57,134 bases of DNA from an uncultured Desulfobacteraceae bacterium (GTDB lineage: Bacteria > Desulfobacterota > Desulfobacteria > Desulfobacterales > ETH-SRB1), in NCBI GenBank assembly GCA_964472445.1, contig CAYYMU010000001.1, forward strand, positions 1 to 57,134. The letters run 5' to 3'. This document shows, in pieces, positions 13,568 through 38,363 of this stretch. A program made the translations under genes and the position numbers. How positions within the stretch are numbered: position 1 is the stretch's first letter; every line of letters starts with the position of its first letter. The notes under the pieces were generated by a model, which was not told the origin of the DNA, did not search any database, and saw only the letters and a list, made by a program, of their open reading frames with translations.

Positions 13568-13580
13568 AAATAGTAAATTC

Positions 13581-13898: not shown

Positions 13899-13918
13899 GA
13901 AAAAGGCTATTATATATT

Positions 13919-16139: not shown

Positions 16140-16167
16140 CTTTTTATCTCCGTAATGTCATAAGAAA

Positions 16168-18198: not shown

Positions 18199-18213
18199 GT
18201 AATGACCTCCTAA

Positions 18214-19707: not shown

Positions 19708-19709
19708 AT

Positions 19710-20117: not shown

Positions 20118-20118
20118 A

Positions 20119-20645: not shown

Positions 20646-20965
20646 TTGTTTTCCTCCCTGGTCCACGGTTTAACACCACACCGAAAAGCGGCTCTGGAAA
20701 TTGCATGAGTCGCTGTGGGATTGGCTAAAAAAACGAAAACAGCTATAACAATCAGCTTAATACTGTCTAAAACAGCTCCGTGATAAAAAATGTGATATAA
20801 TGCAATACCCATAAGAGATATAAGCACGGCAAGAGTGTCGCCTTTTCCAGTGGCATGCATCCGGGAATAAAAGTCTGGAAAACGGATCAGACCGATAGTC
20901 CCGGTAGCGAAAAAGAAACATCCTATTAAAACAAACACTATGGATATTATTTTAATAATTTCCAT
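20642..20965 (-). CDS. mrpG: MrpG subunit
   Basis: GTIGLIRFPDFYSRMHATGKGDTLA is the MnhG signature. The start overlaps the mrpF stop. Confidence 0.85.
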   Translation of the reverse strand: MEIIKIISIVFVLIGCFFFATGTIGLIRFPDFYSRMHATGKGDTLAVLISLMGIALYHIFYHGAVLDSIKLIVIAVFVFLANPTATHAISRAAFRCGVKPWTREENK

Positions 20966-21231
20966 CAAATTTCACCTCTTCCTTCAAAGTACTTTGCTGC
21001 TGCCAGAGTACCGATAAAATTTAAAAAGGCGTACACCATAATAATATCAAGGAACATTTCTATTCTCTTATATATAAAACCCATGAGGACGAGGACTATT
21101 AAAGTTTTTGTGCCTATGGCTCCAACACTTACAATTCGATCAATAATAGTTGGCCCGAATACCACCCGATACAGACATATTAAAACAAGCGAGCAAAGAA
21201 AAATGCTTACACCCAAATAAAAACTTTCCAT
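20965..21231 (-). CDS. mrpF: MrpF subunit
   Basis: 88 aa. YRVVFGPTIIDRIVSVGAIGTK is the MnhF signature. Confidence 0.85.
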   Translation of the reverse strand: MESFYLGVSIFLCSLVLICLYRVVFGPTIIDRIVSVGAIGTKTLIVLVLMGFIYKRIEMFLDIIMVYAFLNFIGTLAAAKYFEGRGEI

Positions 21232-21277
21232 ATCTACGCTCCCGAATTTGGTTCACTTACAATTTGAAAAATACGTT

Positions 21278-22228
21278 TCAATCAACTTGATGTTTTGTTG
21301 TTAATTTATATTTTTTAAGCTTTGAATACAAAGTACTCCGGCTTACATCGAGCTGTTTTGCAACCTGCAATTTGTTCCAGTTGCATTCCTGCATAATTTT
21401 TACTAAAAACCTTTTTTCATTTTCTTCAAAAGAGGTTACTGCCTCCTGCTTATGCCCGCTTAAAACTGCATCTAAAATACGGGAAGGCAATAAATCGCTG
21501 CCGATCATTTCTTCTTTTGTCAACAAAAAGGCATGCTGAATAATATTTTCCAGTTCCTTAACATTGCCTGGCCATGAATAGTCCATAAGAAATTGCATTG
21601 TATCAGAGGTAACGCCTTTAACTTTTTTTTTCAGTTCGTCATTCAGCTGTTTTATAAAATATTGAACCAGAAGGGGGATATCTTCTTTTCTCTGTCTTAA
21701 AGAAGGCAGGTGAATATTAATCACATTAAGCATGTAAGAAAATTCTTCGTTAAAAGTTCCCCTTTCAACTTCTCTTCCCAAATCTGTATCAACGGCGGCG
21801 ATTATCCTGATGTCAGTCATTATTTGCTTTTTCCCGCCAAGTCTCATAATTTTCCGGCCCTGCATAAACCTTAAAAGCTTTATCTGGGTCATGGGAGAAA
21901 TTTTGTCTATCGCAGATAAAACAACTGTTCCGCCATCAGCCAGTTCAAGACAACCTTTCTTCTGGCGCACGGCTCCTTCAAACGAACCGATTTCATGGCC
22001 AAAAAGTCCGCTTTCCAGCATGAGCCGAGGACAGGAAGAACAATTATACACCTCAAAAGCATTGCTTTTTCTGTTGCTGTGCAAATGAATGGCCTGTGCA
22101 ACTAATATTTTTTCTGTCCCTTCTTCTCCACGGATCAAAATTGTGGTATCAGTAGGAGCAAGATTCAATATCATATTGTAAACCTGCTTCATTTTTGCGG
22201 ATTGTTTATTTATGTCCTGTATTCTCAA
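21278..22228 (-). CDS. Sigma-54 activator-like AAA+/HTH protein with degenerate catalytic motifs and no N-terminal sensory domain
   Basis: 316 aa and collinear with the AAA+ and Fis-HTH part of the ORF at 30843-32714 (for example SFEENEKRFLVKIMQECNWNKLQVAKQLDVSRSTLYSKLKKYKL). The motifs read GEEGTEK (Walker A), VVLSAIDKI (Walker B), GSFEGA (GAFTGA) and FNEEFSYMLNV (RxDLYYRLNV). TTG start with AAGGA RBS. Confidence 0.75.
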   Translation of the reverse strand: MRIQDINKQSAKMKQVYNMILNLAPTDTTILIRGEEGTEKILVAQAIHLHSNRKSNAFEVYNCSSCPRLMLESGLFGHEIGSFEGAVRQKKGCLELADGGTVVLSAIDKISPMTQIKLLRFMQGRKIMRLGGKKQIMTDIRIIAAVDTDLGREVERGTFNEEFSYMLNVINIHLPSLRQRKEDIPLLVQYFIKQLNDELKKKVKGVTSDTMQFLMDYSWPGNVKELENIIQHAFLLTKEEMIGSDLLPSRILDAVLSGHKQEAVTSFEENEKRFLVKIMQECNWNKLQVAKQLDVSRSTLYSKLKKYKLTTKHQVD

Positions 22229-22244
22229 GCTTAATCCTTAAATG

Positions 22245-22736
22245 TTAATCAGATTGACCCTGCTCTTTGTTTGAAGGAAGGCCTCCTGTAGATATATCCA
22301 AAAAAATTGAGAGCATAACGGCCATAACAGCAATCCCTACACCGGTCTCAACGCCAAGGATACCAAGCGATCTTGCATGGGGAACCTCCACATGCAAAAT
22401 TTTGGCAAGTGCTCCATAGTCTAAAAAATTCCCGCCCAGTATTATACACAATATCCCTATTCCAACATATATTGCGACGCCGAGACTGCATAAAATCGTA
22501 TTTGATCTTTCTGACATCATACGCAAAACATTATCCAACCCATAAGTTATTACAAGTAGAATTAGACTTGCACCCAGAATTACTCCTCCCTGGAAGCCTC
22601 CTCCAGGGCTGTAATGTCCATGCGCAATAACATAAAGAGCATAAATCTGCATAAATGGTATTAATAACCGGGAAAGTGTCTTAACAATAACATCATCCGA
22701 TTGTTTGGTCATGTCTGCTGTCTGTTTGATTGTCAT
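22245..22736 (-). CDS. mrpB: MrpB subunit
   Basis: 163 aa. LLIPFMQIYALYVIAHGHYSPGGGFQGGVILG is the MnhB signature. Confidence 0.85.
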   Translation of the reverse strand: MTIKQTADMTKQSDDVIVKTLSRLLIPFMQIYALYVIAHGHYSPGGGFQGGVILGASLILLVITYGLDNVLRMMSERSNTILCSLGVAIYVGIGILCIILGGNFLDYGALAKILHVEVPHARSLGILGVETGVGIAVMAVMLSIFLDISTGGLPSNKEQGQSD

Positions 22737-22782
22737 ATTTTCAGGCCTTGGTTTTTAAGCGTATGGTTAATAACGATTTTAT

Positions 22783-23496
22783 TTACTTTAACGCCACAAA
22801 AATAGGCGCCATATCGAGAACATCCTGGACATACACATGATCAGCTTCCATAAAAATATGGGCGATCCTGTCCTCCATATCACCGGTCATCAGATCTTCA
22901 GCCACCTTCTTGCTGACAGCATGCACATAATAGACACCGTCTTTAACATCTACTGTAATAGTACCAGGTGTAAGTGTTATCGAATTGGCAAGAGTAACCA
23001 TCGATATATCGCTTTCTAATTTTGACTTAAATTTCATTATCTTCGGATCAAGCAGGCTTCTCGGGCCCAGAGCCAGACGCGCTACATGTAAATTAGACAG
23101 GAAAATCTGGTATAAAAGCCATGGAATGTATATAATAAATCTTTTTACTATTACACGCATATCTCCTGTTCTTGGATTGGCAAACATCAGATCATAAGAC
23201 AAATATGATATCAGCGCACAGCAAAGCATGCCAATTGTGATATGAAATACATCATAGTGACCTGATAAAAGCAGCCAGAAACCCAACAGAATTATGAAAG
23301 CCGATATAAATTTGACAATCTTGGCTTTTGTCTGTTTAGCCCCTGTAAATATTGCCTCTATTCTTTTTCGATGTATAGCCTGAGTCTCAGATGTCAGTTT
23401 GGCGGCAATATCCAATATCTGTTTGGCTCTATCTCTCGCATCATCTAACATTTCAAAGGACTTGTATGTGGCTTGAACCAGTACTGTTACTTCCAT
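22783..23496 (-). CDS. mrpE: MrpE subunit with about 65-aa hydrophilic N-terminal extension
   Basis: The C-terminal 170 aa carry MnhE signatures (WLLLSGHYD, ANSITLTPGTITVDV, YYVHA). GAGGAAAAGG RBS supports the long form. Confidence 0.8.
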   Translation of the reverse strand: MEVTVLVQATYKSFEMLDDARDRAKQILDIAAKLTSETQAIHRKRIEAIFTGAKQTKAKIVKFISAFIILLGFWLLLSGHYDVFHITIGMLCCALISYLSYDLMFANPRTGDMRVIVKRFIIYIPWLLYQIFLSNLHVARLALGPRSLLDPKIMKFKSKLESDISMVTLANSITLTPGTITVDVKDGVYYVHAVSKKVAEDLMTGDMEDRIAHIFMEADHVYVQDVLDMAPIFVALK

Positions 23497-23589
23497 CCTT
23501 TTCCTCTTTCTATGTTTTTAATCCACAGGTTAAGCAGATTCCACAAATTATCGTTAGTTAACCGTTTTATATCGTTTATCAAAATACAG

Positions 23590-24402
23590 TTAAGGAAGCA
23601 GCATAACGGGCGTATGTGATTTTTCCATCACCCTGTATGCCAGCCTGCCTAAAAAAATATCTTTAAATTTATACCTGCGTTTTGCACCTATAATTATCAT
23701 GGTGGAATCATAGTCCTGCGCCGCGCGGAGTATCTCTTCAACAGTTCTTCCCGCATACATGTGATATTCTGCTGAAATACCGAGCTTAATGCATGCATCA
23801 CGGTTATTAACCATTTTATCCATGAGTTGCTGAAGATCGCGCAGGGTTAATTTCTTAAATATTACATTTACAAGTTCGAGTTCGTCTATTAATTCCTTAA
23901 AATCAGCGACACATTTTAATGCTTTTTCATATTCAGTCGACCAGTCTGTGGGCAATAAAACACGTTCAAACATTCCTTTTGAACTAAAATTTAATGTTTT
24001 TTCATCGTTATCAACAGCTATAACAGGAATATTAGCTGATTTAACAATATTATTTAATGTTGAGCCACCAAATATTTTTCGGTCGCTTTGTTTATCAAAA
24101 TGAATAACTATCAGAGAAATCTGGTAATTTTGGATGGTTTTTAAAACGCTTGCAACAAGGTTTTCGGGTTCAATTTTTATGCTCGCATTTATACCGTAAT
24201 CACTCAGTTTCTTTTTCCATGTCTCAAATCGATCAGATACCAGACCCTTTAATCTGCTTTTTTCGATCCCCTTGTCTTTGCCTAAGGCCGAAAGGAGAAC
24301 TATTTCCCGGCATCCAAATTTACTGAGGCCTGATAAACCCTCCAGGACTTTAAAATCGGGTTTATCCAAATTTGTAGCATATAGTATTTTTTTTACGTCC
24401 AT
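23590..24402 (-). CDS. Tandem-domain universal stress protein
   Basis: 270 aa with two USP halves. Same strand as mrpE and 94 nt upstream of it. Confidence 0.8.
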   Translation of the reverse strand: MDVKKILYATNLDKPDFKVLEGLSGLSKFGCREIVLLSALGKDKGIEKSRLKGLVSDRFETWKKKLSDYGINASIKIEPENLVASVLKTIQNYQISLIVIHFDKQSDRKIFGGSTLNNIVKSANIPVIAVDNDEKTLNFSSKGMFERVLLPTDWSTEYEKALKCVADFKELIDELELVNVIFKKLTLRDLQQLMDKMVNNRDACIKLGISAEYHMYAGRTVEEILRAAQDYDSTMIIIGAKRRYKFKDIFLGRLAYRVMEKSHTPVMLLP

Positions 24403-24655: not shown

Positions 24656-24671
24656 TGCAACATCCGTGCCT
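24656..24671 (-). promoter_or_regulatory. Sigma-54 (-24/-12) promoter candidate for the USP-mrp-like operon
   Basis: The minus strand reads AGGCACGGATGTTGCAT, against the consensus TGGCACG-N4-TTGCW. GG-N10-GC spacing is exact and only the first T is mismatched. It lies about 255 nt upstream of the USP start codon. Confidence 0.6.
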
Positions 24672-24773: not shown

Positions 24774-25157
24774 TGCAGGAACCTATTTTCAGAAACCTAT
24801 TCATATCTTTACACAATTGCGTGTATGATATTCAGACATTTTATGTTCAATAACTGTACAATATTTTTCCAGAGTTATCTAAGCCTATGAACTCATAAAA
24901 ACAGACAAATAATATTATCCATAAAAATATCACGACAGACTCGCCTTGAAATATTTTGTGATTTCCTGCAGATTCATTAATATTACAGTTCTGTCTACAT
25001 TTTAACTTGACAATTTAAGCTCTATCTGTTTATTTTGGCAAATATTTATATGCAGAAACAGGGTAAAATATATGCAAAAATAGGGTAAAAGTTGGCAGAT
25101 TATGAATGTCACATTTGCCCTGTGAGCTGAGAACTGTGTTTAAGGAGGATGTTTTTT

Positions 25158-26024
25158 ATGAAATTCAAGAAAATGCTGTTTGTAACCGACTTTGACGAAT
25201 TATGGTTTGATGCCCTTGAATCATTGATGGAACTAAGGAAGGCAGGGCTTAATCATGTGGTTTTTCTCCACGTAATAAGAAAAGAAAGCGTTACAATGCG
25301 ACGCGGAAAAGGCTACCTCAAAGACGAAGATATCAGATTAAGACAAATGGCGGATGTTCGCTTTATTGAATGGGCTGAAAGTATTTTTGAAAAAGGTATG
25401 GAGTGTGGCGCGTATGTTGTCGTTGGTGACCCTCTTCCTAAAATTCTTTCAACAGCTGAAACAGAGGGTATAGACCTGATAGTAACTAAAGCCCATAAAA
25501 CAACAAAATTAGAACGACTGTATGCAGGTTCAACGACCATAGAACTCCTGCGGCGGTCAAAAACGCCTGTTCTGGTTCATAAATATATGCTTCCTTCTGG
25601 AAAGATCAATGATAAGCCTTTTGAAGTTCCTCTGTTTACAACCGACTGGTCATCTCCATGCGAAAGAGCACTGGAACAAATTATTACTCTCAAAAATATC
25701 GTCAAAAAAGTAGTTGTGGTACACGTTGTTAATGATGAAACCGTAAAAGGCAAATCAAAAAACGATCTTATGAAAATTCAAAAAGAAAATAAAAAAAGAC
25801 TGGGAGATGTCTGTGTTGCCTTTGAAGATGAAGGCATAGAGGCGGAATACCATCTTTGCATGGGAGAAACCGTTTCTCAGATCGAAACAGCAGCTCGTGA
25901 ACATGGCGCAACAATGGTTGTTATGGGCGCAACAGGAAAAGGAGCATGGCGGACACGCTGGCTTGGCAGTGTTTCTCAGAAACTTACAGAAATTTCAGAA
26001 TTGCCTACGTTGTTAATACCTTAA
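25158..26024 (+). CDS. Tandem-domain universal stress protein
   Basis: Paralogue of the ORF at 4748-5635 (MKFKKMLF.TDF.EL.F.ALESL.EL+KAGL...). AGGAGG lies 9 nt before ATG 25158, so the ORF-track start at 25149 is probably too early. Confidence 0.85.
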   Translation: MKFKKMLFVTDFDELWFDALESLMELRKAGLNHVVFLHVIRKESVTMRRGKGYLKDEDIRLRQMADVRFIEWAESIFEKGMECGAYVVVGDPLPKILSTAETEGIDLIVTKAHKTTKLERLYAGSTTIELLRRSKTPVLVHKYMLPSGKINDKPFEVPLFTTDWSSPCERALEQIITLKNIVKKVVVVHVVNDETVKGKSKNDLMKIQKENKKRLGDVCVAFEDEGIEAEYHLCMGETVSQIETAAREHGATMVVMGATGKGAWRTRWLGSVSQKLTEISELPTLLIP

Positions 26025-26118: not shown

Positions 26119-26514
26119 TCAGGCTAAAAATTTTTTCAACATAGCTGCCATCTCTTCCGGCTCAACCGGCTTTTCAATATATACTTCAGGTTCTGGTATA
26201 GTCTGACCTTCAGCCTCGGAAAGAGCTTTCTGCGAACGGATAAAAGTCCTTTTTGCTATTCCTGAAAATACCATCACAGGAATATCGCTTAGGTTGGGAT
26301 CTGTTTTTACTTCACGGTACATTTTAATACCACTTTCCTTTGGCATTAATATGTCTAAAATTATCAGATCGGGCTTTTCTTTCCGTATCTTTTTAAGAGC
26401 TTCTTCGCCGTTAACAGCAACTTCAGGCTTAAAGCCACTATCTTCAACTACAGTTGAACAAAATGTTCTCACATCAGCATCATCATCGACAATTAAAACT
26501 CTTTTCTCCATCAT
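26119..26514 (-). CDS. Single-domain CheY-like response regulator
   Basis: Receiver motifs VLIVDDD, DLIILDILMP and a conserved Lys region. AGGAGG precedes ATG 26514, so the ORF-track start at 26544 was trimmed. Confidence 0.85.
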   Translation of the reverse strand: MMEKRVLIVDDDADVRTFCSTVVEDSGFKPEVAVNGEEALKKIRKEKPDLIILDILMPKESGIKMYREVKTDPNLSDIPVMVFSGIAKRTFIRSQKALSEAEGQTIPEPEVYIEKPVEPEEMAAMLKKFLA

Positions 26515-26662
26515 CGTCCTCCTTTTACTCTGAGACTTTTGCAAAATATACTTAAATTAACAATTTTTATCTACTGAAAACCAGTAAATTTTCGAGTAAG
26601 TTTTTCGTTTGATTGAAAAAAATTTATCTACTATATTGATTTTTAAAATATTACAAGAAAAA

Positions 26663-28231
26663 TTATTTTTTGTCTCCTGGCTCATTATTAGGAAGCTGGA
26701 TAGTAAATTTTGTTCCTTTGCCTGATTGCGATTCAACATCTATGGTTCCGCCATGTTCATGTATTGTTTTTTGGGTGACCAGCAACCCAAGGCCAGTTCC
26801 TCTCGATCCTTTTGTGCTGAAAAATTGAGCAAAAAGTTTTTCCTGCACCTCTTTATCCATGCCACAACCATTATCAACAACTTCAAAAACAACTCCGCCA
26901 TCTTCTTTCTGTAAAACATTTACCTGTACCTGCCAATCCTTCTCAGTATCAGGATCAAAAATACAGGCATCAATTGCATTTGAGACTAAATTGGTAAGGC
27001 TGGTATGTACACCTTTTGGATCTAAATATACCTTTCCAATATCCTTATTGAGATTACATACTATTTCAATATTATTTTCTTTTGCTTTCTCTTCCAAAAG
27101 CTCACAGACTTCACCTGCTATAGTATTTGGATCGCAATTCTCATATTCAGGCTCACGTTCCTTGGAATAGCTTAGCAGGTCCAGAACAAGGCCGGACACC
27201 CTGCCAATATTTCTTTCCACCATATCCCAGCCTGTTTTTAATTTGCTGTCAGGATATCCCTGAGCTAACGCATCTTTCTGGCCGTCTTGAAACATCTTCC
27301 CAAATGCTGAGTTAACAATATAAACTCCGCCTTTAAGCCCGTTGAGAATATTTTTTATGCCATGGGCAAGGCCGGCTACTGTCTGGCCGACAGCCACCAG
27401 TCTTTCCGACTGAATTAATTCTTTTTGCAGTTGTTTAATTTCTCTAAGATCCTGGAAAAAGCCAACACTGCCTATAGGTCTTTCGTCTTCACAAAGTATC
27501 GCGCCTGAAAATCTGACCGGCACCAATTCACCTTTTTTTGCCTTTAAAAACGTATCCTGTCCTGTAAAAATAACATTAGCACAACTTGTCCTGCCTGAAA
27601 AAGCGGCAGAGATCTTCTGCATTATCTCTTCAGGATAAAGATCTTCTGCTTTTTTTTCTCTTTTAACTTCATTCTCGGTATATCCAAAAAGTTTTTCAGC
27701 AGCCTTGTTAAATATTATAATATTATCTTCTCTGTCAGTGGCAATAATTCCATCAATCGACCGCTGTACAAGTTTATTCTCAAATTCATATCTTCTCTTT
27801 ATCTCTTCTGTTTTATCCTTTACCATTTTCCACAATTCATTGGCATACCTGTTCAATATCTTTTTCGTTTTCAGCCGATCCTCAGCCCTTTCAAGAGCAA
27901 CTGAAAGGACCTGATCGCTAACCGGCTTGTTAATGAAATCTGATGCACCCAGATGAAGAGACTGAACTGCGGATTCCATATCACCATGACCGGTAATAAC
28001 AATAACCTCTGTGCTTGGATTAATTTTTTTTATCTCCTTTAAAACCTGTATACCGTTCATGCCGGGCATTTTTATATCGGTAAGCACTATTGGAAAAAAT
28101 TCTTTTTTAAAAAAATTAATGCCCTCTTGTCCGCTCTCAGCGGCTACCACTTCATACCCATCGCTTTTAAGAGACATGCTGAGAAGTTTTCTAATACCTT
28201 CTTCATCGTCAATCAGTAATATTTTTGACAT
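26663..28231 (-). CDS. Hybrid protein: N-terminal receiver, PAS-like domain, HisKA and HATPase histidine kinase
   Basis: ILLIDDEEG...TDIKMPGMNG receiver, H-box LAHGIKNIL, and N/G boxes (NLVSNAID, DNGCGM, GTGLGL). ATG 28231 lies 2 nt after the upstream stop with a GGAG RBS. Confidence 0.85.
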   Translation of the reverse strand: MSKILLIDDEEGIRKLLSMSLKSDGYEVVAAESGQEGINFFKKEFFPIVLTDIKMPGMNGIQVLKEIKKINPSTEVIVITGHGDMESAVQSLHLGASDFINKPVSDQVLSVALERAEDRLKTKKILNRYANELWKMVKDKTEEIKRRYEFENKLVQRSIDGIIATDREDNIIIFNKAAEKLFGYTENEVKREKKAEDLYPEEIMQKISAAFSGRTSCANVIFTGQDTFLKAKKGELVPVRFSGAILCEDERPIGSVGFFQDLREIKQLQKELIQSERLVAVGQTVAGLAHGIKNILNGLKGGVYIVNSAFGKMFQDGQKDALAQGYPDSKLKTGWDMVERNIGRVSGLVLDLLSYSKEREPEYENCDPNTIAGEVCELLEEKAKENNIEIVCNLNKDIGKVYLDPKGVHTSLTNLVSNAIDACIFDPDTEKDWQVQVNVLQKEDGGVVFEVVDNGCGMDKEVQEKLFAQFFSTKGSRGTGLGLLVTQKTIHEHGGTIDVESQSGKGTKFTIQLPNNEPGDKK

Positions 28232-28232
28232 A

Positions 28233-30323
28233 TCAATTCTCCGATGCATGTAAAAAAACAGGAAATCTCAACTCAAAGGTTGTGCCAACACGTTCTGTGC
28301 TACTTACCTCAACTGTTCCTCCATAGTCATGGACAATTCCATAACTTATGGACATGCCAAGCCCTGTACCCTTACCAACATCCTTGGTGGTAAAAAAGGG
28401 CTCAAATATTCTCTCTACGTTGCTGCCAGGAATACCTATACCAGTATCAGCTACAATAACCACAATCTGATTTTCCTGCACAAATGATTTTATTGCCATA
28501 GTTTTTTTAAACTCTGGCCCTATTTTATCGACCTTTTCATCTATAGCATCCACTGCATTAGTTACCAGATTGATAAAAACCTGCTCAAGCCGGTTGTTAT
28601 CAGCCATTATGGGTGGCAAATCTTCGGCTAATTCAAGATCAACTTCTATCTGATGCAATCTTAGCTGCTGGCCCAATACTTTAAATACATCTCTGATGGG
28701 CTTATTAATATCTACCATTGACTGCACAGAAGGAGATATTCGGGAAAACTCCCTTAAATGATTAATAATTGAGGATGCTCTATCCACATAGCTGCTCATT
28801 TCTTCAGACACTGTTTTCAAGTCTTCAATATCTATTTTTTTACCTTGTTTAACTATTTTCTCAATAAAATTACTTCCAATCTTGATAACATTTAAAGGCT
28901 GATTTAATTCATGGGCTATACCAGAAGCCATGGTGCCTATAGTAGTCATTTTGCTGGCCTGTACTAACTGGGCTTCCTTTTGTATGCTTTTTGTAATATC
29001 AGTAGTTGCCACAATTAACACTTTTTTCCCCATATATGTTGACGGGCAAGCCATAATATTTACATAAAACATACTCTTATCCTTATGCACATGCCTTTTT
29101 TTTGTAAAGAAGCCCCTTTGGCCGGAGGAAAGTTTTTGGAACCCGTCTATAACTTCTCCGACTTGTTTATGGCCCAAATCGCTGAAAGACATTTTAATTA
29201 ATTCTTCCCTCGAATAACCGTAAGTATCAATGACCCGTTCATTGATATCCAGAATTTTAAAATTATCCCTGTCTATAATAAAAATTGGATCAGGATTGGT
29301 ATTAAACAACAGTCTATATTTTTCCTCAGATGATCTGAGCTCTTTCTCATAAGCTCTCACCTTATAAAGCATGTGCTGAAAAGAGTCCCCGAGTCTGACG
29401 ATTTCATCTCCTTTATAGTTCTGATAAATGGGACACTCCATACATTGATCTAGCTTTCCCGGAAATTTTCCTGATGGTTCACCAAAGCACAGTGTATCTT
29501 GAACATACCAGCAGGGTATATTGTCATTCTTATAAGCCGGACAATCTGTTTTGTTGCAACGCAGCAATTCCCAGCATGATATGGATCTTTCAGAAAATTT
29601 ATCAAAAACACAGGAATGTTCTTCACGGCTGATCTTATCAACAGCCCTGGTCAGCTTAACAATAGGTCGGATGGCATATCTGTTCAGCCACAGAGTCAGA
29701 AAAAAACCAAGCGCTAATACTGATGTAATAGCTCTGAGTATATTCTGGTTTCGCACAGAGGTAACTGTTTGCTGAATCGGCGCCCAGCTAAAACCAACCG
29801 ACAAAACCCCCAAAAGCTTTTTTTCATTTCCGTGACATTTATAACAGGCCTTTTCATTATAAACAGGAATAGCATAGCTTAATGTTTTTGCCTTACAGCC
29901 TTTACAATATCGCTTTTCAACGCCATGTTCTATTTCTTTTGTCCTGAATGCTGTCAGGGTAACAATAGACTTTGTCTTCCTGTTGATATCATCAGGGGCT
30001 TTCCCGTTACGCTTTATAATACCTATGTCATCGCAGAGATGAACCACCTCCATATCTTCAAGGGTTCCAAGTCGTTCCAGTATAGCCTGAACCTGGTCCA
30101 TTTCGCCGTCAAGCATTGGATACTCTATGCTTTTCATAACAGTATCACTTATTTCCATGGCCATTTTCTTGTGATATTCCGTATAATTACGAATTTGAGT
30201 AAAAACATCAAAATAACTAAATGTGCCCAGCACAATAAGCAGAATTATGCTCATGCCCAGTATTATTCTGATTCTTAAACTTCCTGATATGAATTGTTTT
30301 AAATTTACCCAGCTAAACATCAA
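28233..30323 (-). CDS. Sensor histidine kinase with periplasmic CxxCH (heme c) domain and cytoplasmic 8-Cys module
   Basis: 696 aa with TM helices at about aa 20-38 and 196-214. CYKCH lies in the intervening domain. A Cys-rich stretch at aa 238-297 carries two CW dipeptides. This is followed by a PAS-like domain, the H-box IAHELNQPL, and HATPase motifs. Confidence 0.85.
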
Positions 30324-30400
30324 AAATTCCCTCTCAAACCCAAAAATAAATCCGGGTTTAAATTTCTAAACTTGTCAGGAACAGAGGTTTGCGTCTTCTC

Positions 30401-30832
30401 TCAATATCCTGGATGCTTGTGGCCGCTGTGACAGGCTGTGCAGACATTCTTTGGAATGCTCAGCGTCTTTTGATGCTCGAGTTTGGTAGGTGCCCTGAGA
30501 TGCAGACTGGCTGGACCATGACAGCTTTCACATTGTTTATTAATCATGCCTGGAGTTTCCTGAACGTTTGAAAAACCTCCTGATTTTCCATATCCCGTGG
30601 TATGACATGGAAGACAGTTTGGATCATTATCTTTTTTTCTCATTTGTATAATCCGAAAATTTTTTGAGTATTTCCAGGAATAATAGCTCTCAACATGTTC
30701 CAGATGACATTCTTTACACTTTTTCATTCCTACATATACTGCCTCTGCTGTTTTTTCTTCGCCGGAAAAAACTGTACCAGAAAAAACCATCAAAAAGGAT
30801 ATCGCAATTAAAACAAAGAATCTATCTTTCAT
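30401..30832 (-). CDS. Periplasmic tetraheme cytochrome c (cytochrome c554-like family)
   Basis: Signal peptide MKDRFFVLIAISFLMVFSGTVFS. Four CxxCH motifs (CKECH, CLPCHTTGYG, CESCH, CTACH). The ORF-track start at 30856 overlaps the upstream gene, so ATG 30832 is preferred. Confidence 0.8.
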   Translation of the reverse strand: MKDRFFVLIAISFLMVFSGTVFSGEEKTAEAVYVGMKKCKECHLEHVESYYSWKYSKNFRIIQMRKKDNDPNCLPCHTTGYGKSGGFSNVQETPGMINKQCESCHGPASLHLRAPTKLEHQKTLSIPKNVCTACHSGHKHPGY

Positions 30833-30842
30833 GATAACCGCC

Positions 30843-32714
30843 TTATTCATCCACATGATTGAGATTATATTTTTTCAGCTTTGCATACAACGTGCTTCGG
30901 CTGATGTTAAGCTTTTTTGCGACCTGGGACTTGTTCCACTGATATTCTTCCAAAACCCCGGTTAAAAATTTTCTTTCATTTTCCTGAAAAGAACTTATTG
31001 TATCTTCTTTATCTGCAATAGAAAATATATTTGGGGGGAAATTTTGTTCATTAATATATTCATCCTTAGTAAGAATAAAAGAATGCTCAATAATATTTTC
31101 CAGCTCTCTGACATTGCCAGGCCAGCTGTAATTTATCAGCAAATTCATAGCATTGGAAGAAATCCCTTTGACCTTTTTATCCCCTCGCGAGTTGAGCTTT
31201 TGCAAGAAATATTCTACTAAAAGTGATATATCGCTGCGTCTTACTCTTAAAGGAGGAACATTTACCGGAATAACATTTAAACGATAATACAAATCCTCAC
31301 GAAAGTTTCCTTTTTCCACTTCTTTACTTAAATCCTTGTTCGTAGCTGTTATTACCCTGGCATCGACATCTATGGTTTTTGTTCCGCCCAACCTTTCGAA
31401 TTTTTGGAATTGAAGAAATCTGAGAAGCTTCACCTGTGAAATTAAAGGAATTTCTCCTATTTCATCAAGAAAAAGTGTCCCTTTATTCGCCAACTCAAAG
31501 CGTCCGATCTTTTTATGTGTAGCGCCGGTAAAGGCTCCTTTCTCATGGCCGAACAATTCGCTTTCTAATAATGTGTGAGGGTAAGCTGAACAGTTTACAA
31601 TGACAAAACGGCCTTCTTTTCTACGGCTGTACGAATGTACTGCTTTTGCAATAAGTTCCTTTCCAGATCCGCTTTCTCCCTGAATCAAAACCGTTGCATT
31701 GGTAGGAGCTATATCTAAAATCAAATTATAAATCTGGCGCATCTTATGATCTTTTCCTATTATGCCTCCAAAACCTGAAAATGTTTTAACCTTTTCATCT
31801 AATCCTTTCAGCCTTTCCTCGTTCAGGGCTATTCTTCTGATATCACCGGCAACCTGTGAAAGCATTAGATGAAAAAAACGTGAATCATCTTTTGAAAAAA
31901 CATTAACATCTGATGCCAGCAAAATCACTCCCCCCGCAATATCCTTTTTACCTATCGGAACAACAGATAAGGACTTATAATTTGCATAGTTTTTCAACCA
32001 CCTGCAGCCAAAAGGATTAAGTTCGCCAATATCCATTGGAGTACATATCGAATTGATAAAAGATACAAGCTCCTCTTTATCCTCTACTGACGGGCATCTA
32101 TAACCATCGACATTAACAAATCCGTCTTTTTCCCGGTTAAAAACAAAAGGCATAACTTCTTCAAACAAAAATATATCTTTGATTCGTTCGATTATAAAAT
32201 CAAAGGCATCGGCCAGATATTTTTTATCACCAAGGTTATATGTAACATTGCAAATAGCCTTAATTTCCTTGTGTGATTTCTCAAGCGCTTCGGTCTTTTC
32301 CTTTACAGCCGTTTCAAGATTTAATGTATAACGCTTAAGTTTTTGTCTGGTTTTTAATTTAGCTTCAGCGCGTCGCAGAGCCATTGAAAGCGTGTGTTTG
32401 TTAATAGGTTTTTCTATAAAATCAGAAGCGTCCAACTGTATTGATTTAACGGCCTTTTCCAAATCTCCGTAACCTGTTATTATAATAATTTCTGTATCCG
32501 GATTTATCTGCTTTATTTTTTTTAATACCTCAATTCCGTTCATACCGGGCATTTTAATATCTGTTAAAACAATAGAAGGCTCCTCCTTTTTGAACAGCTC
32601 AATACCTCTTTCCCCATTTTCAGCTGTTATAACATCATATCCGTCATCTCTAAGAGATATGCTCAATAATTTTCTAATGCCTTCTTCATCATCTATAAGT
32701 AACAGTTTCAACAC
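30843..32714 (-). CDS. Sigma-54-dependent response regulator (receiver, GAF-like domain, AAA+, Fis HTH)
   Basis: 623 aa with a canonical receiver. The AAA+ motifs are intact: GESGSGKE, GHEKGAFTGA, LFLDEIGE and FREDLYYRLNV. C-terminal HTH. Confidence 0.9.
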   Translation of the reverse strand: MLKLLLIDDEEGIRKLLSISLRDDGYDVITAENGERGIELFKKEEPSIVLTDIKMPGMNGIEVLKKIKQINPDTEIIIITGYGDLEKAVKSIQLDASDFIEKPINKHTLSMALRRAEAKLKTRQKLKRYTLNLETAVKEKTEALEKSHKEIKAICNVTYNLGDKKYLADAFDFIIERIKDIFLFEEVMPFVFNREKDGFVNVDGYRCPSVEDKEELVSFINSICTPMDIGELNPFGCRWLKNYANYKSLSVVPIGKKDIAGGVILLASDVNVFSKDDSRFFHLMLSQVAGDIRRIALNEERLKGLDEKVKTFSGFGGIIGKDHKMRQIYNLILDIAPTNATVLIQGESGSGKELIAKAVHSYSRRKEGRFVIVNCSAYPHTLLESELFGHEKGAFTGATHKKIGRFELANKGTLFLDEIGEIPLISQVKLLRFLQFQKFERLGGTKTIDVDARVITATNKDLSKEVEKGNFREDLYYRLNVIPVNVPPLRVRRSDISLLVEYFLQKLNSRGDKKVKGISSNAMNLLINYSWPGNVRELENIIEHSFILTKDEYINEQNFPPNIFSIADKEDTISSFQENERKFLTGVLEEYQWNKSQVAKKLNISRSTLYAKLKKYNLNHVDE

Positions 32715-33266: not shown

Positions 33267-34934
33267 ATGAATATAAAACGTGAACACATAGATTTTGACG
33301 TACTTTTTGTTGGAGGTGGACCGGCAAGCCTTGCCGGCGCCATCAGGTTAATGCAGATAGCACGGAAAAATAAAATCAATCTTGATGTGGCTCTTATTGA
33401 AAAAGGGGCTAATATAGGATCTCATGCCCTAAGTGGCGCTATTCTTAATCCTGTTGCATTAAAGGAACTTATTCCGGATTTCCTGGAAAAAGGATGCCCG
33501 ATTGAAACAACCGTAAGGCATGATGAATTCTATTTTTTGACACAAAACAAATGCTACCGTTTTCCATTTATACCCAAATACATGAAAAACAAAGGTTTAT
33601 ATGTTATAAGCCTTTCAAGGTTTACAAAATGGCTTGCGGGAATCGCCGAAGATCTTGGAATAAATATATTTCCTGGTTTTGCTGGTAAAGAGGTTTTATA
33701 TGCCGCGGACAAAAAAAGCATAATCGGAATACGCACAGGAGATAAGGGGCTTGGAAAGAACGGCTCCCGCAGAGACAATTTTGAGCCTGGGATCGATTTG
33801 ATGGCCAAGGCAACTGTGTTTGGTGAAGGAGCCAGAGGAAGCCTTGTTCAGGATGTTACAGACAAGCTTGATATTTTCTCTGGAAGGATGCCACAGGTTT
33901 TTGAAACAGGAATAAAAGAAGTTATTCATCTTCCTGAAAACAATTATTTCACAACCAGCACAGGTAATGACATCCATACACTTGGCTACCCCTTAAGCTT
34001 GGATACTCCGGGAGGCGGGTTTATATATGAAATGGGAGACAACAAAGCAGCTTTGGGTTTTCTTGTAGGTCTTTCATATCAGAACCCTTTGTTCAATGTT
34101 TATGATGAATTCATAAAATTCAAAAAACATCCCTTAATATCAAAAATAATTAAAAACGGGAAAGTAATCGAACAGGGCGCAAGAACAGTCGCCACTGGCG
34201 GATATTATTCCATTCCCAGGATAAGCGTAAATGGGGGAATATTTATAGGCGGCAGTGCATCAATGCAAAACACTCCGGGTCTCAAGGGTATTCATCTATC
34301 TATGAAATCGGGCATGCTCGCGGCAGAAACAATAATAAAAGCCTTTGAAAAAAACAGCTTCACGCAGGAAAATCTTGACTACTATAATAAGCTGGATGAA
34401 AAAAACTGGATGAAAAAAGAGCTCTATGAGGGAAGGAATTTTTCACAGGCTCTATCAAAAAAAGGACCGCTTAAATTTATTCATCTCGGCGCCCAGTATT
34501 TTACCAAAGGCCGTGGAATACAAGACATGATGCCTCTTGAGGAAGATTACAAGACTCTTCGTCCTGCAAGGAAAGGTGAAAACGGTTTTAGTCCTGATAA
34601 AAAGGCTTTTGACAATATTTTATATGTTGACAAACTTACAGGTGTCTATCTGTCCAAGACCATGCACAGGGAGGATCAGCCCTGCCATATTATTATTCAT
34701 AATCAGGATTTGTGTGTTAATGAATGTTTCACAAAATTTCATTGCCCATGCACAAGATTCTGTCCCGGAGATGTATATGAACTCGAAACAGATAGTGAAA
34801 CATCTCAAAAACGGATTAAACTTAATCCTTCCAATTGTCTTCACTGTAAAACCTGCGTTATAAAGGATCCCTACGAAAACATCACATGGACATGCCCTGA
34901 GGGCGGAGATGGGCCGGGTTATACGATACTGTAA
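33267..34934 (+). CDS. Electron-transfer flavoprotein:quinone oxidoreductase (ETF-QO)
   Basis: 555 aa. N-terminal FAD motif VLFVGGGPASLAGA. C-terminal Cys cluster (CPCTRFCP...CLHCKTCVIKDP). Length and layout are typical of ETF-QO. Confidence 0.8.
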   Translation: MNIKREHIDFDVLFVGGGPASLAGAIRLMQIARKNKINLDVALIEKGANIGSHALSGAILNPVALKELIPDFLEKGCPIETTVRHDEFYFLTQNKCYRFPFIPKYMKNKGLYVISLSRFTKWLAGIAEDLGINIFPGFAGKEVLYAADKKSIIGIRTGDKGLGKNGSRRDNFEPGIDLMAKATVFGEGARGSLVQDVTDKLDIFSGRMPQVFETGIKEVIHLPENNYFTTSTGNDIHTLGYPLSLDTPGGGFIYEMGDNKAALGFLVGLSYQNPLFNVYDEFIKFKKHPLISKIIKNGKVIEQGARTVATGGYYSIPRISVNGGIFIGGSASMQNTPGLKGIHLSMKSGMLAAETIIKAFEKNSFTQENLDYYNKLDEKNWMKKELYEGRNFSQALSKKGPLKFIHLGAQYFTKGRGIQDMMPLEEDYKTLRPARKGENGFSPDKKAFDNILYVDKLTGVYLSKTMHREDQPCHIIIHNQDLCVNECFTKFHCPCTRFCPGDVYELETDSETSQKRIKLNPSNCLHCKTCVIKDPYENITWTCPEGGDGPGYTIL

Positions 34935-35100
34935 CCTAAAATGAGCGGTTAGCCATTAGCTTTTAGTCAAACTATATCAAAATGTTATTAAATTCTTATT
35001 TATTTACCTGTTTTACCTGTTGCTTGTTAATAACAAATAATTATACGAATGCACGTTCCATAAGAGCTAACAGCTAATTGCTAATTGCTTAACGCAAAAA

Positions 35101-36798
35101 CTACAATCTTCCTTTTCTTAGAATAGCTATCAAGAGCCATACACCCATTACTGCCGCTGAAACAAAACCTATAATACCGATTATAGATAATCCGTGAAAC
35201 AGGGGAGGAGTTTTAGCAAAAACTATAAGCGCAGAACCGATTATAAGAGATGCTATTACAATTGAAAAGGATATTCTATTGCTTATCTGGTTATAGGTTT
35301 CAAGCACAGGCTCAAATCCCTTGTGCTCAAACTTAATACTTAATTTCTGCTGTTTGATAAGGCGTGTAATTTCAAGAGTATCTTTGGGAAACTGCTGAAC
35401 AAATTGAACGAGGGCAGATATAAGGCCGAGAATATCACCTGCAATCCTTTTTGGATAAAACTTTGCGCGTTTTACCTTTTCAATAAACGGCGCTGCCTGG
35501 GCTATCATATCAAAATCAGGATTAAGCCGAAGACCAACGCCTTCTACAGCGCTGAAGACCTTCATCATAAGAAATATATCTGCCGGTATCCTTAAACGGT
35601 AGCGTGAAAGCATTTCAAGCAGATGCTGAAGCATTTTTCCGATTTTGATATCCTTGAGGGGTTTGTAAAGATGCTGGCCTAAAAATTCCGACACATCTCT
35701 TTCAAGCATCCGAATGTCAGGATCTTCATCACATGAGGTAAGCTTAAGAAGCGCCTGTGTGGTTTTTGCGGCATCTTTATGTACTATATGATCAATAAGA
35801 TCAACAAAATCTTCTCTGGTCTGCAAATCAACGGAACTCACCATTCCATAGTCAAGAAGGCATATCACATTATTTGGCAAAACATAAATGTTTCCTGGAT
35901 GCGGATCTGCATGAAAAAAACCGGACTCAAAAACCTGACGCAAATATAGATCTGCGCCGCGCGAGGTAATAATCTTTCTGTCAAGCCCCGCTTTATCTAT
36001 TTCGTCAATTTCAGATATCTTGATACCTTCCACAAATTCCATGGTCAAAACACGCGATGTTGTTGCATCTTTAAAGACTTTTGGAATATAAACAGTGGAA
36101 TCATCAAAAAATTCGCCGGCAAATCGCTCCATATTTGACGCTTCTATATTATAGTCTATTTCTCTTTCAATTGTTCTTGCAAATTCTTCGACTATTTTAA
36201 CAGGCCGGTGCAGGTCCATCTCCTCTATGTGATTTTCCATAAGGGTCGCCAGATGTAACATAATCTCTAGATCAATCTCTATGATTTTCCTGATACCCGG
36301 GCGCTTAACCTTCACTGCCACATCTTCGCCGTCTTTTAATCTTGCCCTGTAAACCTGGCCTATTGATGCGGAAGCAAGAGGAATATCCTCTATAAAATCA
36401 AACGTCTCTTCAAAAACAGGCCCAAGCTCTGTTTCTATTATTTTTTTTGCTTGATCTGAAGAAAATGGAGGAACCCTGTCCTGAAGTTTGGAAAGTTCGT
36501 TTATAAAATCAATTGATATAAGATCAGGACGTGTGGAAAGTATCTGTCCAAGCTTAATAAAAGTCGGGCCCAGCTCTTCAAAAGCCAGCCTGACTCTTTC
36601 CGCCTTTGAAAGTTTTTCAAGGCGGTCGCGCCGTTTTTTTGAAATCATGTTTAAGCCAATTTCAACATACTGCTCTATCTTTAAAACCTCGACAAGATCG
36701 CCAAATCCATACTTAAAGAAAACGCTCAGTATCTGTCGATAGCGGTTCAGGTTACGATAGGTGCGGCTTAAGACTCCAATTTTTCGTATGCTAAGCAT
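35101..36798 (-). CDS. ubiB: ABC1/UbiB-family atypical kinase
   Basis: 565 aa. LGPTFIKLGQILSTRPD, ASIGQVYRA, and FFHADPHPGNI motifs, with C-terminal TM helices. Confidence 0.85.
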   Translation of the reverse strand: MLSIRKIGVLSRTYRNLNRYRQILSVFFKYGFGDLVEVLKIEQYVEIGLNMISKKRRDRLEKLSKAERVRLAFEELGPTFIKLGQILSTRPDLISIDFINELSKLQDRVPPFSSDQAKKIIETELGPVFEETFDFIEDIPLASASIGQVYRARLKDGEDVAVKVKRPGIRKIIEIDLEIMLHLATLMENHIEEMDLHRPVKIVEEFARTIEREIDYNIEASNMERFAGEFFDDSTVYIPKVFKDATTSRVLTMEFVEGIKISEIDEIDKAGLDRKIITSRGADLYLRQVFESGFFHADPHPGNIYVLPNNVICLLDYGMVSSVDLQTREDFVDLIDHIVHKDAAKTTQALLKLTSCDEDPDIRMLERDVSEFLGQHLYKPLKDIKIGKMLQHLLEMLSRYRLRIPADIFLMMKVFSAVEGVGLRLNPDFDMIAQAAPFIEKVKRAKFYPKRIAGDILGLISALVQFVQQFPKDTLEITRLIKQQKLSIKFEHKGFEPVLETYNQISNRISFSIVIASLIIGSALIVFAKTPPLFHGLSIIGIIGFVSAAVMGVWLLIAILRKGRL

Positions 36799-36819
36799 TA
36801 TATTTTAACAAAGCCCTCA

Positions 36820-37122
36820 TTATTCTTTTTCACTTATAGCCTTTTTAAGATCCCTTATCTCTTTTTTCAATGCATTTAATTCATCGCTTGTTACCATATT
36901 CGCTTTTTTCATAACTTCCTTTACTGTTTGTTCAACTCGTTTTTCCAGCTTTTTTTGCGAGTCTTCATATTTTTTCCTCAGTTCTTTCAAGAACTTTTTT
37001 CCTTCAGTTTCAGATAACTCCCCCTGTTTTATTAAGTCTTCGGCCAGATTTTCCACTTCATCCTTTGTTTTAAGGGCAAGGCCAATGCCTGTTAGCATTG
37101 TTTTTTTCATAAAATCAAACAT
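36820..37122 (-). CDS. Phasin-family (PHA granule-associated-like) small coiled-coil protein
   Basis: 100 aa. MLTGIGLALKTKDEVE...LIKQGE.S..EGKKF is typical of this family. Confidence 0.6.
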   Translation of the reverse strand: MFDFMKKTMLTGIGLALKTKDEVENLAEDLIKQGELSETEGKKFLKELRKKYEDSQKKLEKRVEQTVKEVMKKANMVTSDELNALKKEIRDLKKAISEKE

Positions 37123-37208
37123 TATAACCCCCTTTTTTTATAATTTATCTGTTTATAACCGTAAACTGCGAACTATTATTACACGTATTTTTTGTATTTG
37201 GTACAAAT

Positions 37209-38363
37209 CTACCTGAGCCTGCCTACGACGGCACTCGCAATGGTATTTTTCTGAATTTCTTTTGTTCCTTCATATATCTCAGTAATTTTAGCATCACGGT
37301 AAAATCGTTCAACCTCATAATCAGCCATATATCCATATCCACCCAGCATCTGTATTGCTTCGTCAGAAACCTCCACCGCAGTTCTGGCGGCAAACATCTT
37401 TGCCATGGATGTAAGTTTGGGATCTATACGGCCCTGGTCAAAATTCCAGGCCGCCTTATAGGTTATAAGTCTGGCAAGCTCTATTTTTGTGGCCATGTCA
37501 GCTAATTTATGTTCCGTAACCTGAAATTGTGCTATTTTTTTCCCAAATTGCTCTCTCTGCTTAACATATGCCAGAGCTCTATCAAAAGCCCCCTGAGCTA
37601 TTCCAAGAGCCTGGGCAGCTATCAAAATCCTGCTTTCATCAAAAAATTCAAGTACTTGATAAAAACCTCTTCCCTCTTTTCCAACAAGATGAGATAATGG
37701 CACATGAACATCCTTAAAGGTCACCTCTGCAGTTGGCATCAGATGAATGCCCATCTTATCTCCAACATCCATTGAAGCTACCCCTTTCTGCTCAGCCTCA
37801 ACAAGAAACATACTCATGCCTCTGTAAGAAGGCTTAATATCTGAATCTGTCTGGCAAAGAACAGTATAAAAACCAGCAAGCCCGCCATTAGTAATAAAAG
37901 TTTTAGCGCCGTTAATGATCCACTCTTCTGAATCCTTTACTGCTGTAGTATTCATGAATGTTATGTCAGAACCATGATCAGGTTCAGTAAAAGCTCCGCC
38001 TGAAAGCATTTTCCCTTCTGCTACCGGAGGCAAAAATTTTTCCTTTAAATCATCACTGCCAAAACGCAAGATACATTCAGAAGCAAACGATGAAAGAATT
38101 AAAGCGCTTCCGACACTGGAATCACCGCTGCAAAACTCTTCGGCAACAAGAATGTTTTCCAAAACCCCAAGACCCTGCCCGGAATAATCTTCGGGAAAGT
38201 GAATGCCTATAAATCCAAGATCTGCTGCTTTTCCCCAGATTTTCTTTGGAAATTCATGTTTTTTTACAAGTTCAAGTATAAGCTCTTTTTTGAATTCACC
38301 TTTTACAAAATCCCTTGCTGCTTTCTTAATCTCTTTTTGCGACCTTGACAGCTCAAAATCCAT
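37209..38363 (-). CDS. Acyl-CoA dehydrogenase
   Basis: 384 aa. GAFTEPDHGSD, NGAKTFITNG and a C-terminal YEGT.EIQ motif. Confidence 0.9.
   Translation of the reverse strand: MDFELSRSQKEIKKAARDFVKGEFKKELILELVKKHEFPKKIWGKAADLGFIGIHFPEDYSGQGLGVLENILVAEEFCSGDSSVGSALILSSFASECILRFGSDDLKEKFLPPVAEGKMLSGGAFTEPDHGSDITFMNTTAVKDSEEWIINGAKTFITNGGLAGFYTVLCQTDSDIKPSYRGMSMFLVEAEQKGVASMDVGDKMGIHLMPTAEVTFKDVHVPLSHLVGKEGRGFYQVLEFFDESRILIAAQALGIAQGAFDRALAYVKQREQFGKKIAQFQVTEHKLADMATKIELARLITYKAAWNFDQGRIDPKLTSMAKMFAARTAVEVSDEAIQMLGGYGYMADYEVERFYRDAKITEIYEGTKEIQKNTIASAVVGRLR

Follow-up and report, generated by a model that had tools for sequence, protein, structure and literature searches.

In a 57,134-nucleotide stretch of DNA (the window) from an uncultured Desulfobacteraceae bacterium of the GTDB family ETH-SRB1 (GenBank assembly GCA_964472445.1, contig CAYYMU010000001.1, positions 1 to 57,134 of the forward strand), a cluster of five minus-strand signaling genes joins a secreted tetraheme cytochrome c to a sensor histidine kinase that is predicted to carry a periplasmic heme c of its own. 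The genes for these two proteins form a pair that is linked strongly, though not universally, in related genomes. The sensor domain belongs to a known family, and the response regulator and kinases encoded with it are ordinary in kind; what appears to be undescribed is the conserved pairing of such a sensor with a dedicated tetraheme cytochrome. Many relatives share the pairing, among them bacteria that live as partners of archaea oxidizing methane or ethane, and this suggests an undescribed way of reading the redox state of the periplasm.

The sensor kinase and the tetraheme cytochrome

Periplasmic sensors carrying heme c have been known since 2006-2008. The family was re-defined in 2026 as sCache_heme (PMC12889525), and the kinase of the window contains a domain of this Geobacter type. 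The earlier note on this DNA, made from the letters alone, had described a kinase whose periplasmic domain has its own CxxCH, and the description stands: the motif, CYKCH, lies at residues 160-164, in a sensor flanked by hydrophobic segments at approximately residues 11-44 and 195-213 and thus located outside the cytoplasm. The sensor scores 30.5 bits against PF21563 (Mcp40H-20_sensor) when the whole protein is searched and 34.3 bits when the domain is searched alone (cut-off 27), and a profile made from 15 orthologues finds 3B47 and 3B42 as its top matches in the PDB (E = 1.8e-4 and 3.5e-4). CYKCH aligns with the CQSCH of both of these Geobacter structures, and the methionine of a second motif, EYPML, aligns with Met26 of chain 3B42, which is Met60 of GSU0935 by the offset from Cys140, Cys143, and His144. 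Invariant or nearly so, that methionine is a candidate distal heme ligand; we predict that the domain carries one covalent c-heme with histidine and methionine as axial ligands, as in GSU0582 and GSU0935. These two chemoreceptors of Geobacter sulfurreducens resemble the present protein in that two transmembrane helices enclose a Cache/PAS-like domain with a single CxxCH heme motif, and kinase fusions of the domain are known in the family. They differ from it in their output, which here is a histidine kinase with a cysteine-rich insertion (the two-CW domain) in its HAMP domain rather than a chemoreceptor. The present sensor also has a dedicated, co-encoded tetraheme cytochrome, a kind of partner on which the family papers that we consulted are silent.

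The earlier note had made its proposal depend on conservation of the kinase CxxCH. The motif is invariant, as C[YFH]KCHG, in all of approximately 20 kinases that were found only through their adjacency to the cytochrome, a sample unbiased by motif, and so is the segment with the candidate methionine ligand. Across both of the scans described below, CxxCH is present in 92 of 92 unique sensors and EYPML in 89 of them, figures that are biased for the kinase-side set because its loci were retrieved with patterns that included CxxCH and EYPMLDG. A CKGC motif in the window's sensor domain is missing from the orthologues and was dismissed for that reason.

The cytochrome is likewise what it had been taken to be, a tetraheme protein with a signal peptide. 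Its CxxCH motifs begin at residues 47, 81, 109, and 139, an N-terminal hydrophobic segment is followed by no further transmembrane segment, and the match to PF13435 (Cytochrome_C554) reaches 48.6 bits against a cut-off of 20.8. The family, taken at 48% identity and above, comprises about 90 clusters, in which the four CxxCH motifs are invariant and AxA-type signal-peptidase sites point to cleavable signal peptides; the mature protein of the window has about 115 residues. Its best match in the PDB is the tetraheme cytochrome c554 of Nitrosomonas europaea (1BVB, E = 2.8e-10; also 1FT5), with which the first three heme motifs and the well-conserved segment around heme II (CxxCHxxGxGxxGG) align. 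The two proteins are nevertheless not orthologues: the score against the c554 equivalog model NF043010 is 40.7 bits (cut-off 400), the window's protein is half as long as c554 (211 residues), its fourth-heme region does not align, one distal histidine of c554 aligns with tyrosine or arginine, and its gene stands beside that of a sensor kinase rather than in a setting of hydroxylamine oxidation. Outside the CxxCH motifs, the family has two invariant histidines and one nearly invariant (H119, H146, and H148). Because these are so few, at least one of the four hemes is probably not coordinated by two histidines, and that heme could be open or methionine-ligated. An AlphaFold model of the cytochrome built from 34 sequences was rejected (predicted local distance difference test score [pLDDT] 60); a Foldseek search of the PDB with it gave one meaningless match, OmcZ (E = 8). 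We found no fusion of cytochrome to sensor among the 120 homologues listed, all of them 89-208 residues long.

A feature of the kinase that the earlier note did not include is the two-CW domain, a segment with seven conserved cysteines that scores 39.9 bits against NCBIfam NF045718 (cut-off 35). In the alignment of orthologues it is an insertion between the two HAMP helices, after the second transmembrane segment, and a plain HAMP stands at the same place in the orthologues from four loci (L016-L018 and L021; loci from our scans are numbered with an L) and in a short protein of L020. An exhaustive search places the two-CW domain in 702 representative clusters at 50% identity. The pattern CW...C...CP...CW...C...C..C is conserved over 150 representatives (P0122-P0271), with C, W, C, CP, CW, T, C, K, and C..C nearly invariant. 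When the best 92 of the 702 were scanned with Pfam, the partner domains were HAMP (38 of 92), the histidine-kinase ATPase domain HATPase_c (36), the chemoreceptor signaling domain (17), GGDEF (8), the heme sensor PF21563 (7), and various other Cache sensors. Given this spread of partners, we regard the domain as a general cytoplasmic signaling module that is not specific to heme sensors. It occurs at the N terminus, inside HAMP, and at the C terminus of kinases, chemoreceptors, GGDEF proteins, and HD proteins; on its own it forms proteins of 60-150 residues. In the kinase it may be a second, cytoplasmic input that responds to a metal or to thiols. A literature search on the two-CW domain found nothing; its insertion in a HAMP domain appears not to have been described before, and we flag the domain as a widespread, unstudied, cysteine-rich signaling module that is able to sit within HAMP.

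Conservation of the cytochrome-kinase pair

The idea that all five genes might be syntenic across the Desulfobacterales did not hold, as the full order is kept only in close relatives within the ETH-SRB1 family (L001, L002, L083, L086, and L088). The three of these loci that extend into the flanks (L001, L002, and L083) match the window there as well, with an ETF-ubiquinone oxidoreductase (ETF-QO) gene on one side and two Usp genes on the other; L083 additionally has UbiB on the ETF-QO side and the first Mrp genes among its flanking genes. The same family includes Seep-SRB1a and Candidatus (Ca.) Desulfaltia, a candidate partner of anaerobic methanotrophic archaea (bioRxiv 10.1101/2025.02.04.636526).

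The adjacency of cytochrome and kinase, by contrast, is kept far beyond that family, so that a loss of synteny in relatives, which the earlier note had named as a refutation, was not what we found. In a cytochrome-side scan of one genome per GTDB species, 21 loci had close orthologues of the cytochrome, and the heme-sensor kinase was the next gene in 19 of them, separated in nearly all by -8 to 85 nt, with overlapping stop and start codons in L015-L018. The hosts belong to Eth-SRB1, Ca. Desulfaltia, Seep-SRB2 (UBA3076 and E20), Desulfatiglandales, unclassified Thermodesulfobacteriota, and others; in Ca. Desulfofervidus auxilii, 3 nt separate the two genes. At that locus (L081) a divergent gene (4572-6737) encodes a sigma-54 regulator with the unusual domain order REC, AAA+, helix-turn-helix (HTH), second REC, PilZ. 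Near the genes for remoter c554-like proteins (29-43% identity), at 59 loci, we found no heme-sensor kinase. A kinase-side scan of metagenomes with the sensor-domain profile gave 80 loci, 69 of them with at least 450 nt of sequence upstream of the kinase, and the cytochrome gene lies immediately upstream in 51 of the 69. In most loci the soluble hybrid kinase is linked to the pair as well.

Tandem second sensor genes behind a single cytochrome account for several apparent exceptions, namely L020, L112, L116, L136, L152, L153, L156, and L161. In L020 (986-1804) and L021 (6558-7355) the cytochrome is followed by a protein of approximately 265-272 residues that consists of a transmembrane segment, the heme sensor, a second transmembrane segment, and a plain HAMP and lacks a kinase output; short heme-sensor-HAMP proteins are found too in the last seven of the tandem loci just named. 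A full-length heme-sensor kinase follows the short protein in L020, a tandem reminiscent of the Cache_heme-HAMP receptors without output that were described in 2026.

Five Seep-SRB2 loci (L006-L010) have a second cytochrome-kinase pair on the opposite strand. The second cytochrome, with 159 residues and four CxxCH motifs, shares about 35% identity with that of the window; the second sensor is about 26% identical and keeps both the CxxCH (as CHHCHG) and the methionine motif (as ITYPMHIG). In this kinase the HAMP is plain, and the two-CW domain is found between the ATPase domain and a receiver. Two deeply diverged modules thus have the combination of cytochrome, heme sensor, and two-CW domain in common, to our mind the strongest comparative argument that the three may function jointly.

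A gene for a protein with two Usp domains, like the one next to the window's cluster, also recurs beside the pair. It often stands directly upstream of the cytochrome, at 45-58% identity, in lineages that have no sigma-54 regulator, and it is a neighbor in L011, L012, L015, L016, L018, and many of L096-L139.

The proposed relay and its possible input

Downstream of the sensor, the regulator has the properties of an NtrC-class sigma-54 enhancer-binding protein: its phospho-acceptor aspartate (TDIKMPG, residue 51), Walker A motif (GESGSGKE, residue 346), and GAFTGA (residue 393) are intact, and its C terminus is a Fis-type HTH. Against NCBIfam it reaches no equivalog cut-off and hence has no named subfamily. 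Between REC and AAA+, at residues ~125-310, lies an extra domain of about 190 residues that sets the protein apart from NtrC-family regulators of branched or multistep phosphorelays, with which it otherwise shares the REC-AAA+-HTH architecture, the intact GAFTGA, and a GG-N10-GC promoter nearby. The earlier note had called this insert GAF-like. The likeness is weak: most of the PDB matches to a profile of 12 orthologues are GAF domains, with marginal values (E = 1e-3 to 5e-2), among them 3CI6 (1.3e-3), 4MCW, SpoVT, cyanobacteriochrome GAFs, and Nlh1 (4G3K), and no Pfam or NCBIfam family matches the domain. A protein search with it gave one partial match, an alignment too shallow for structure prediction, and a single-sequence AlphaFold model (pLDDT 41) was not used. 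The domain is present in the regulator orthologues of L001, L002, L083, L085, L086, L088, L121, and others.

The receivers of the regulator and of the hybrid kinase are 66% identical, with almost identical alpha-1 helices (DDEEGIRKLLS), and each is 23-27% identical to the single-domain receiver. In loci that have no regulator, the best match to the regulator's receiver is that of the hybrid kinase. Both observations fit one kinase feeding two paralogous receivers, a phosphotransfer that we infer, and the receiver identity lends support to the branched phosphorelay proposed in the earlier note. The observations also suggest that an older set, made up of cytochrome, kinase, hybrid kinase, and CheY, may have gained the sigma-54 branch at the level of the family. 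The near-identical receiver common to the regulator and a co-encoded REC-PAS-kinase is a further difference from the NtrC-family systems. The single receiver matches best the DVU0259/DivK-type model NF045717, at 93.9 bits and thus short of the cut-off of 160; a literature search on DVU0259 found nothing.

A target for the regulator is suggested by the candidate promoter at 24656, upstream of the Usp-Mrp operon, to which the earlier note had already pointed. Sigma-54-like sites in the window number 25 where 31 are expected, which is not above chance, and we take the 24656 site seriously only because it is conserved in syntenic relatives: the GG-N10-GC element recurs at the same position of the corresponding intergenic region in L001, L002, and L083, where it reads AAAGGCAyrrAynTTGCA. 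About 120 nt upstream of it, the four-locus alignment of this intergenic region has a second conserved block, a candidate activator-binding site.

In the reading that we favor, tentatively and as something short of probable, the cytochrome brings the sensor heme into equilibrium with the electron pool of the periplasm, the two-CW domain adds an input, and the kinase feeds two receivers. The cytochrome would exchange electrons with the periplasmic carrier pool on one side and with the sensor heme on the other, so that the oxidation and coordination state of that heme would track the supply of electrons in the periplasm. In the Geobacter sensors, reduction turns a high-spin heme into a low-spin His-Met heme (PMC8396549); here, too, reduction would put the methionine on the heme iron, and the change that comes with the spin-state switch would be relayed through the second transmembrane segment to HAMP. 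At that connector the two-CW domain would add a cytoplasmic metal or thiol signal. The kinase would then phosphorylate the two nearly identical receivers, one of which would activate the sigma-54 regulator, with the conserved promoter of the neighboring Usp-Mrp antiporter operon as a plausible target; the other would control the soluble PAS-kinase, which would in turn feed the DivK-like single receiver. The phosphotransfer routes and the control of the 24656 promoter by the regulator are proposed from sequence.

Several points weigh against such a relay. Contact and electron transfer between cytochrome and sensor are what we infer from sequence and gene context, and adjacency of the genes is equally expected if the cytochrome is merely a regulated product. 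To the retrieval bias in the kinase-side motif counts we add that an argument from charge is weak: cytochromes are basic and sensors less so (median isoelectric points 8.9 and 6.25), with ranges that overlap widely. The cytochrome occurs without the kinase in L003, where a gene for another multiheme cytochrome follows it, and in L014 of Seep-SRB1g, where the gene that follows encodes a flavodoxin-like protein. Conversely, L085, a close relative, has no cytochrome, a sensor 76% identical to the window's, and only 58 nt between regulator and kinase; L089, L090, and L093 have no cytochrome and an 80-nt gap; and L128, L134, L135, L154, and L158 keep the order regulator, kinase, hybrid kinase, CheY without it. 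Because such operons exist, the cytochrome is not an obligatory part of the relay. The promoter at 24656 could be driven by either of two other activators in the window, a degenerate paralogue without a receiver and an NtrX-like regulator. Lastly, a 2026 preprint regards signaling-fused sCache_heme proteins as sensors of nitric oxide (NO), not of redox state (PMC12889525).

That last point leads to a different account, which we consider rather unlikely, in which the cluster is an NO-response module: the heme domain would sense NO by displacement of its methionine, and the c554-type cytochrome, expressed together with its sensor, would bind, reduce, or scavenge the same ligand as an effector or buffer. 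The signaling-fused proteins of the preprint bind NO tightly, and in GSU0582 and GSU0935 both NO and carbon monoxide bind by displacing Met60 (PMC8396549). The kinship of the cytochrome with Nitrosomonas c554, closest around heme II, would suit this account, as would its three conserved histidines, too few for four bis-histidine hemes, which could leave one heme open. The hosts, however, are strict anaerobes of sulfidic seep and vent sediments, where exposure to NO is no obvious selective force, and the cluster has ETF-QO, Usp, Mrp, and Rnf genes as its neighbors, with no NO-detoxifying genes beside it. 

Two-component operons often embed the genes that they regulate, and there is a modest chance that the cytochrome is cargo of this kind, an ordinary carrier autoregulated in the operon of a sensor whose heme is poised by the general pool or by a small ligand. 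The intact heme sensor in the cytochrome-less versions of the operon and the cytochromes that stand alone in L003 and L014 are what such an arrangement would give. It accounts less readily for a cytochrome that is found upstream of the kinase, often with translational coupling and not with respiratory genes, in at least five orders, for a pair that stays together while the rest of the operon varies, and for its duplication or retention as a pair in Seep-SRB2. Very improbable, in our estimate, is a maturation feedback like that of TorC and TorS, in which the apo-cytochrome would bind the periplasmic domain of the kinase and damp signaling, so that the kinase would read the capacity for heme attachment instead of redox state. 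The precedent (Gon et al. 2001, as summarized in PMC10845959) is the pentaheme cytochrome TorC, whose apo form binds TorS and lowers the phosphorylation of TorR. In the Tor system, though, the cytochrome belongs to the regulated respiratory operon and not to that of the sensor; here the sensor would need the same heme-attachment machinery as the cytochrome, which makes an apo/holo read-out less informative, and no data from our analysis point to feedback of this type.

TorT/TorS with apo-TorC feedback and HbpS-SenS-SenR are the closest known systems in which a kinase depends on an accessory protein: in each, the membrane kinase is modulated on its extracytoplasmic side by a protein that is secreted or periplasmic. 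TorC is a multiheme c-type cytochrome (PMC10845959), and HbpS is a heme-binding modulator with redox-dependent action (PMC8396549). Their sequences are unrelated to those of the present module, TorC works in its apo form, its gene standing with that of the reductase, and HbpS binds heme non-covalently and acts on a SenS that has no heme of its own, whereas in a cytochrome-to-sensor relay both partners would carry covalent heme, allowing electrons to pass from heme to heme. 

If the cytochrome does poise the sensor heme, what the kinase measures might be more specific than the carrier pool. We can imagine that sulfate reducers fed electrons by archaeal partners use the module as a sensor dedicated to electron supply, with the cytochrome tapping the periplasmic and extracellular cytochrome network, an extension of the argument that we regard as doubtful. 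The cytochrome would report, heme to heme, whether the partner delivers electrons, and the relay would set the energy-conservation genes (the Usp-Mrp operon), with the two-CW domain integrating a second cytoplasmic input. Were this so, the kinase would be the first described for which a dedicated cytochrome adaptor gives access to a pool of multiheme cytochromes, and the module would be a candidate mechanism of partner sensing in methane- and alkane-oxidizing consortia. Several clades of syntrophs that accept electrons have the module (Eth-SRB1, Ca. Desulfaltia, Seep-SRB2, and Ca. Desulfofervidus), an occurrence that appears to be undescribed and that we treat, as to enrichment, as a lead only. 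In the sCache_heme literature we found Ser/Thr-kinase neighbors and stand-alone or cytochrome-associated forms, and no pairing with a tetraheme cytochrome; the main comparative-genomics paper on syntrophic sulfate-reducing bacteria does not mention kinases and sensors, and a literature search on Seep-SRB2 histidine kinases and cytochromes found nothing. Redox state and NO have both been proposed as the in vivo input of such sensor hemes, and given a tetraheme partner that is conserved and translationally coupled, the idea of a redox relay would become directly testable with two small, expressible proteins.

Layout of the cluster and its neighborhood

Table 1. Coordinates of the cluster, its domains and candidate control elements, and neighboring genes in the window
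Feature	Positions	Strand	Description
Sigma-54 response regulator	30843-32714	-	623 aa; Response_reg, Sigma54_activat, AAA_lid_14, HTH_8 (Pfam)
Secreted tetraheme c554-type cytochrome	30401-30856	-	151 aa; PF13435, four CxxCH
Sensor histidine kinase	28233-30323	-	696 aa; transmembrane segment 1, sCache_heme, transmembrane segment 2, HAMP with two-CW, PAS, HisKA, HATPase_c
Predicted periplasmic heme-c sensor domain of kinase	29742-30197	-	PF21563; CYKCH 29832-29846; EYPML 30111-30125
Two-CW domain inside kinase HAMP	29403-29585	-	NCBIfam NF045718; seven conserved Cys
Soluble hybrid REC-PAS-histidine kinase	26663-28249	-	528 aa; REC, PAS, HATPase_c (Pfam)
Single-domain receiver, DivK/DVU0259-like	26119-26514 (open reading frame to 26544)	-	11-residue insert; Pfam, NCBIfam, alignment
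Candidate sigma-54 -24/-12 promoter	24656-24671	-	AGGCACGGATGTTGCA; GG-N10-GC, GGCAC-N5-TTGCA; upstream of Usp-Mrp operon
Conserved block, candidate activator-binding site	24791-24827	-	~37 nt; TACAC-N6-(A)TGTA; four-locus intergenic alignment
Tandem-Usp gene	25149-26024	+	two Usp domains
Usp-Mrp operon	14634-24402	-	behind the candidate sigma-54 promoter
Receiverless sigma-54-activator paralogue	21278-22228	-	inside Mrp operon; keeps HTH_8
Rnf-type operon	9544-14365	+	RnfC, D and G-like, Rnf-Nqr membrane subunits
RnfB-like polyferredoxin	7538-8338	-	near Rnf operon
NarI-like and CCG/HdrD-like (DsrMK-like) genes	2638-4654
NtrY/NtrX-like two-component system	41409-45695	-	second sigma-54 system of the window
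ETF-QO and following genes	33267-38363		ETF-QO divergent from regulator

All five open reading frames of the cluster are present as the earlier note had them, and their junctions are close (Table 1). The regulator stop overlaps the cytochrome start by 14 nt, or lies 10 nt from it if translation begins at ATG 30832, likely the true start; 80 nt separate cytochrome and kinase; and between kinase and hybrid kinase there is a gap of 1 nt or an overlap of 17 nt, with ATG 28231 the likely start of the hybrid kinase. The 148-nt gap reported before the CheY-like gene holds for a start at ATG 26514, which has the ribosome-binding site AAAGGAGGA, and not for the alternative TTG 26544. Scans of the cluster for terminators and sigma-70 promoters stayed at background level, with no convincing internal terminator and no operon boundaries.

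The operon behind the sigma-54 promoter encodes a tandem-Usp protein, MnhE, MnhB, a degenerate activator, MrpF, and MrpG, and further a MbhE-like and a NuoK-like protein and three MrpA/D-type antiporter subunits. The degenerate activator shares about 51% identity with the AAA+ region of the main regulator and has GEEGTEK as its Walker A motif, GSFEGA in place of GAFTGA, and LSAID in place of the LDEIG of Walker B. These degenerate motifs are conserved in L001 and L002 (74-79% identity), and the protein may be an ATPase-dead DNA-binding competitor or anti-activator.

The wider neighborhood is rich in energy-conservation genes, the Rnf-type operon and the RnfB-like gene standing just upstream of the Mrp operon and the NarI-like and CCG/HdrD-like genes further upstream. 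On the other side of the cluster, ETF-QO is followed by a UbiB/ABC1 kinase-like gene and an acyl-CoA dehydrogenase gene. Beyond these, the second sigma-54 two-component system of the window consists of an NtrY-like kinase (NtrY_N, HAMP, PAS, HisKA) and an NtrX/NtrC-like regulator, with a DUF4390 gene upstream.

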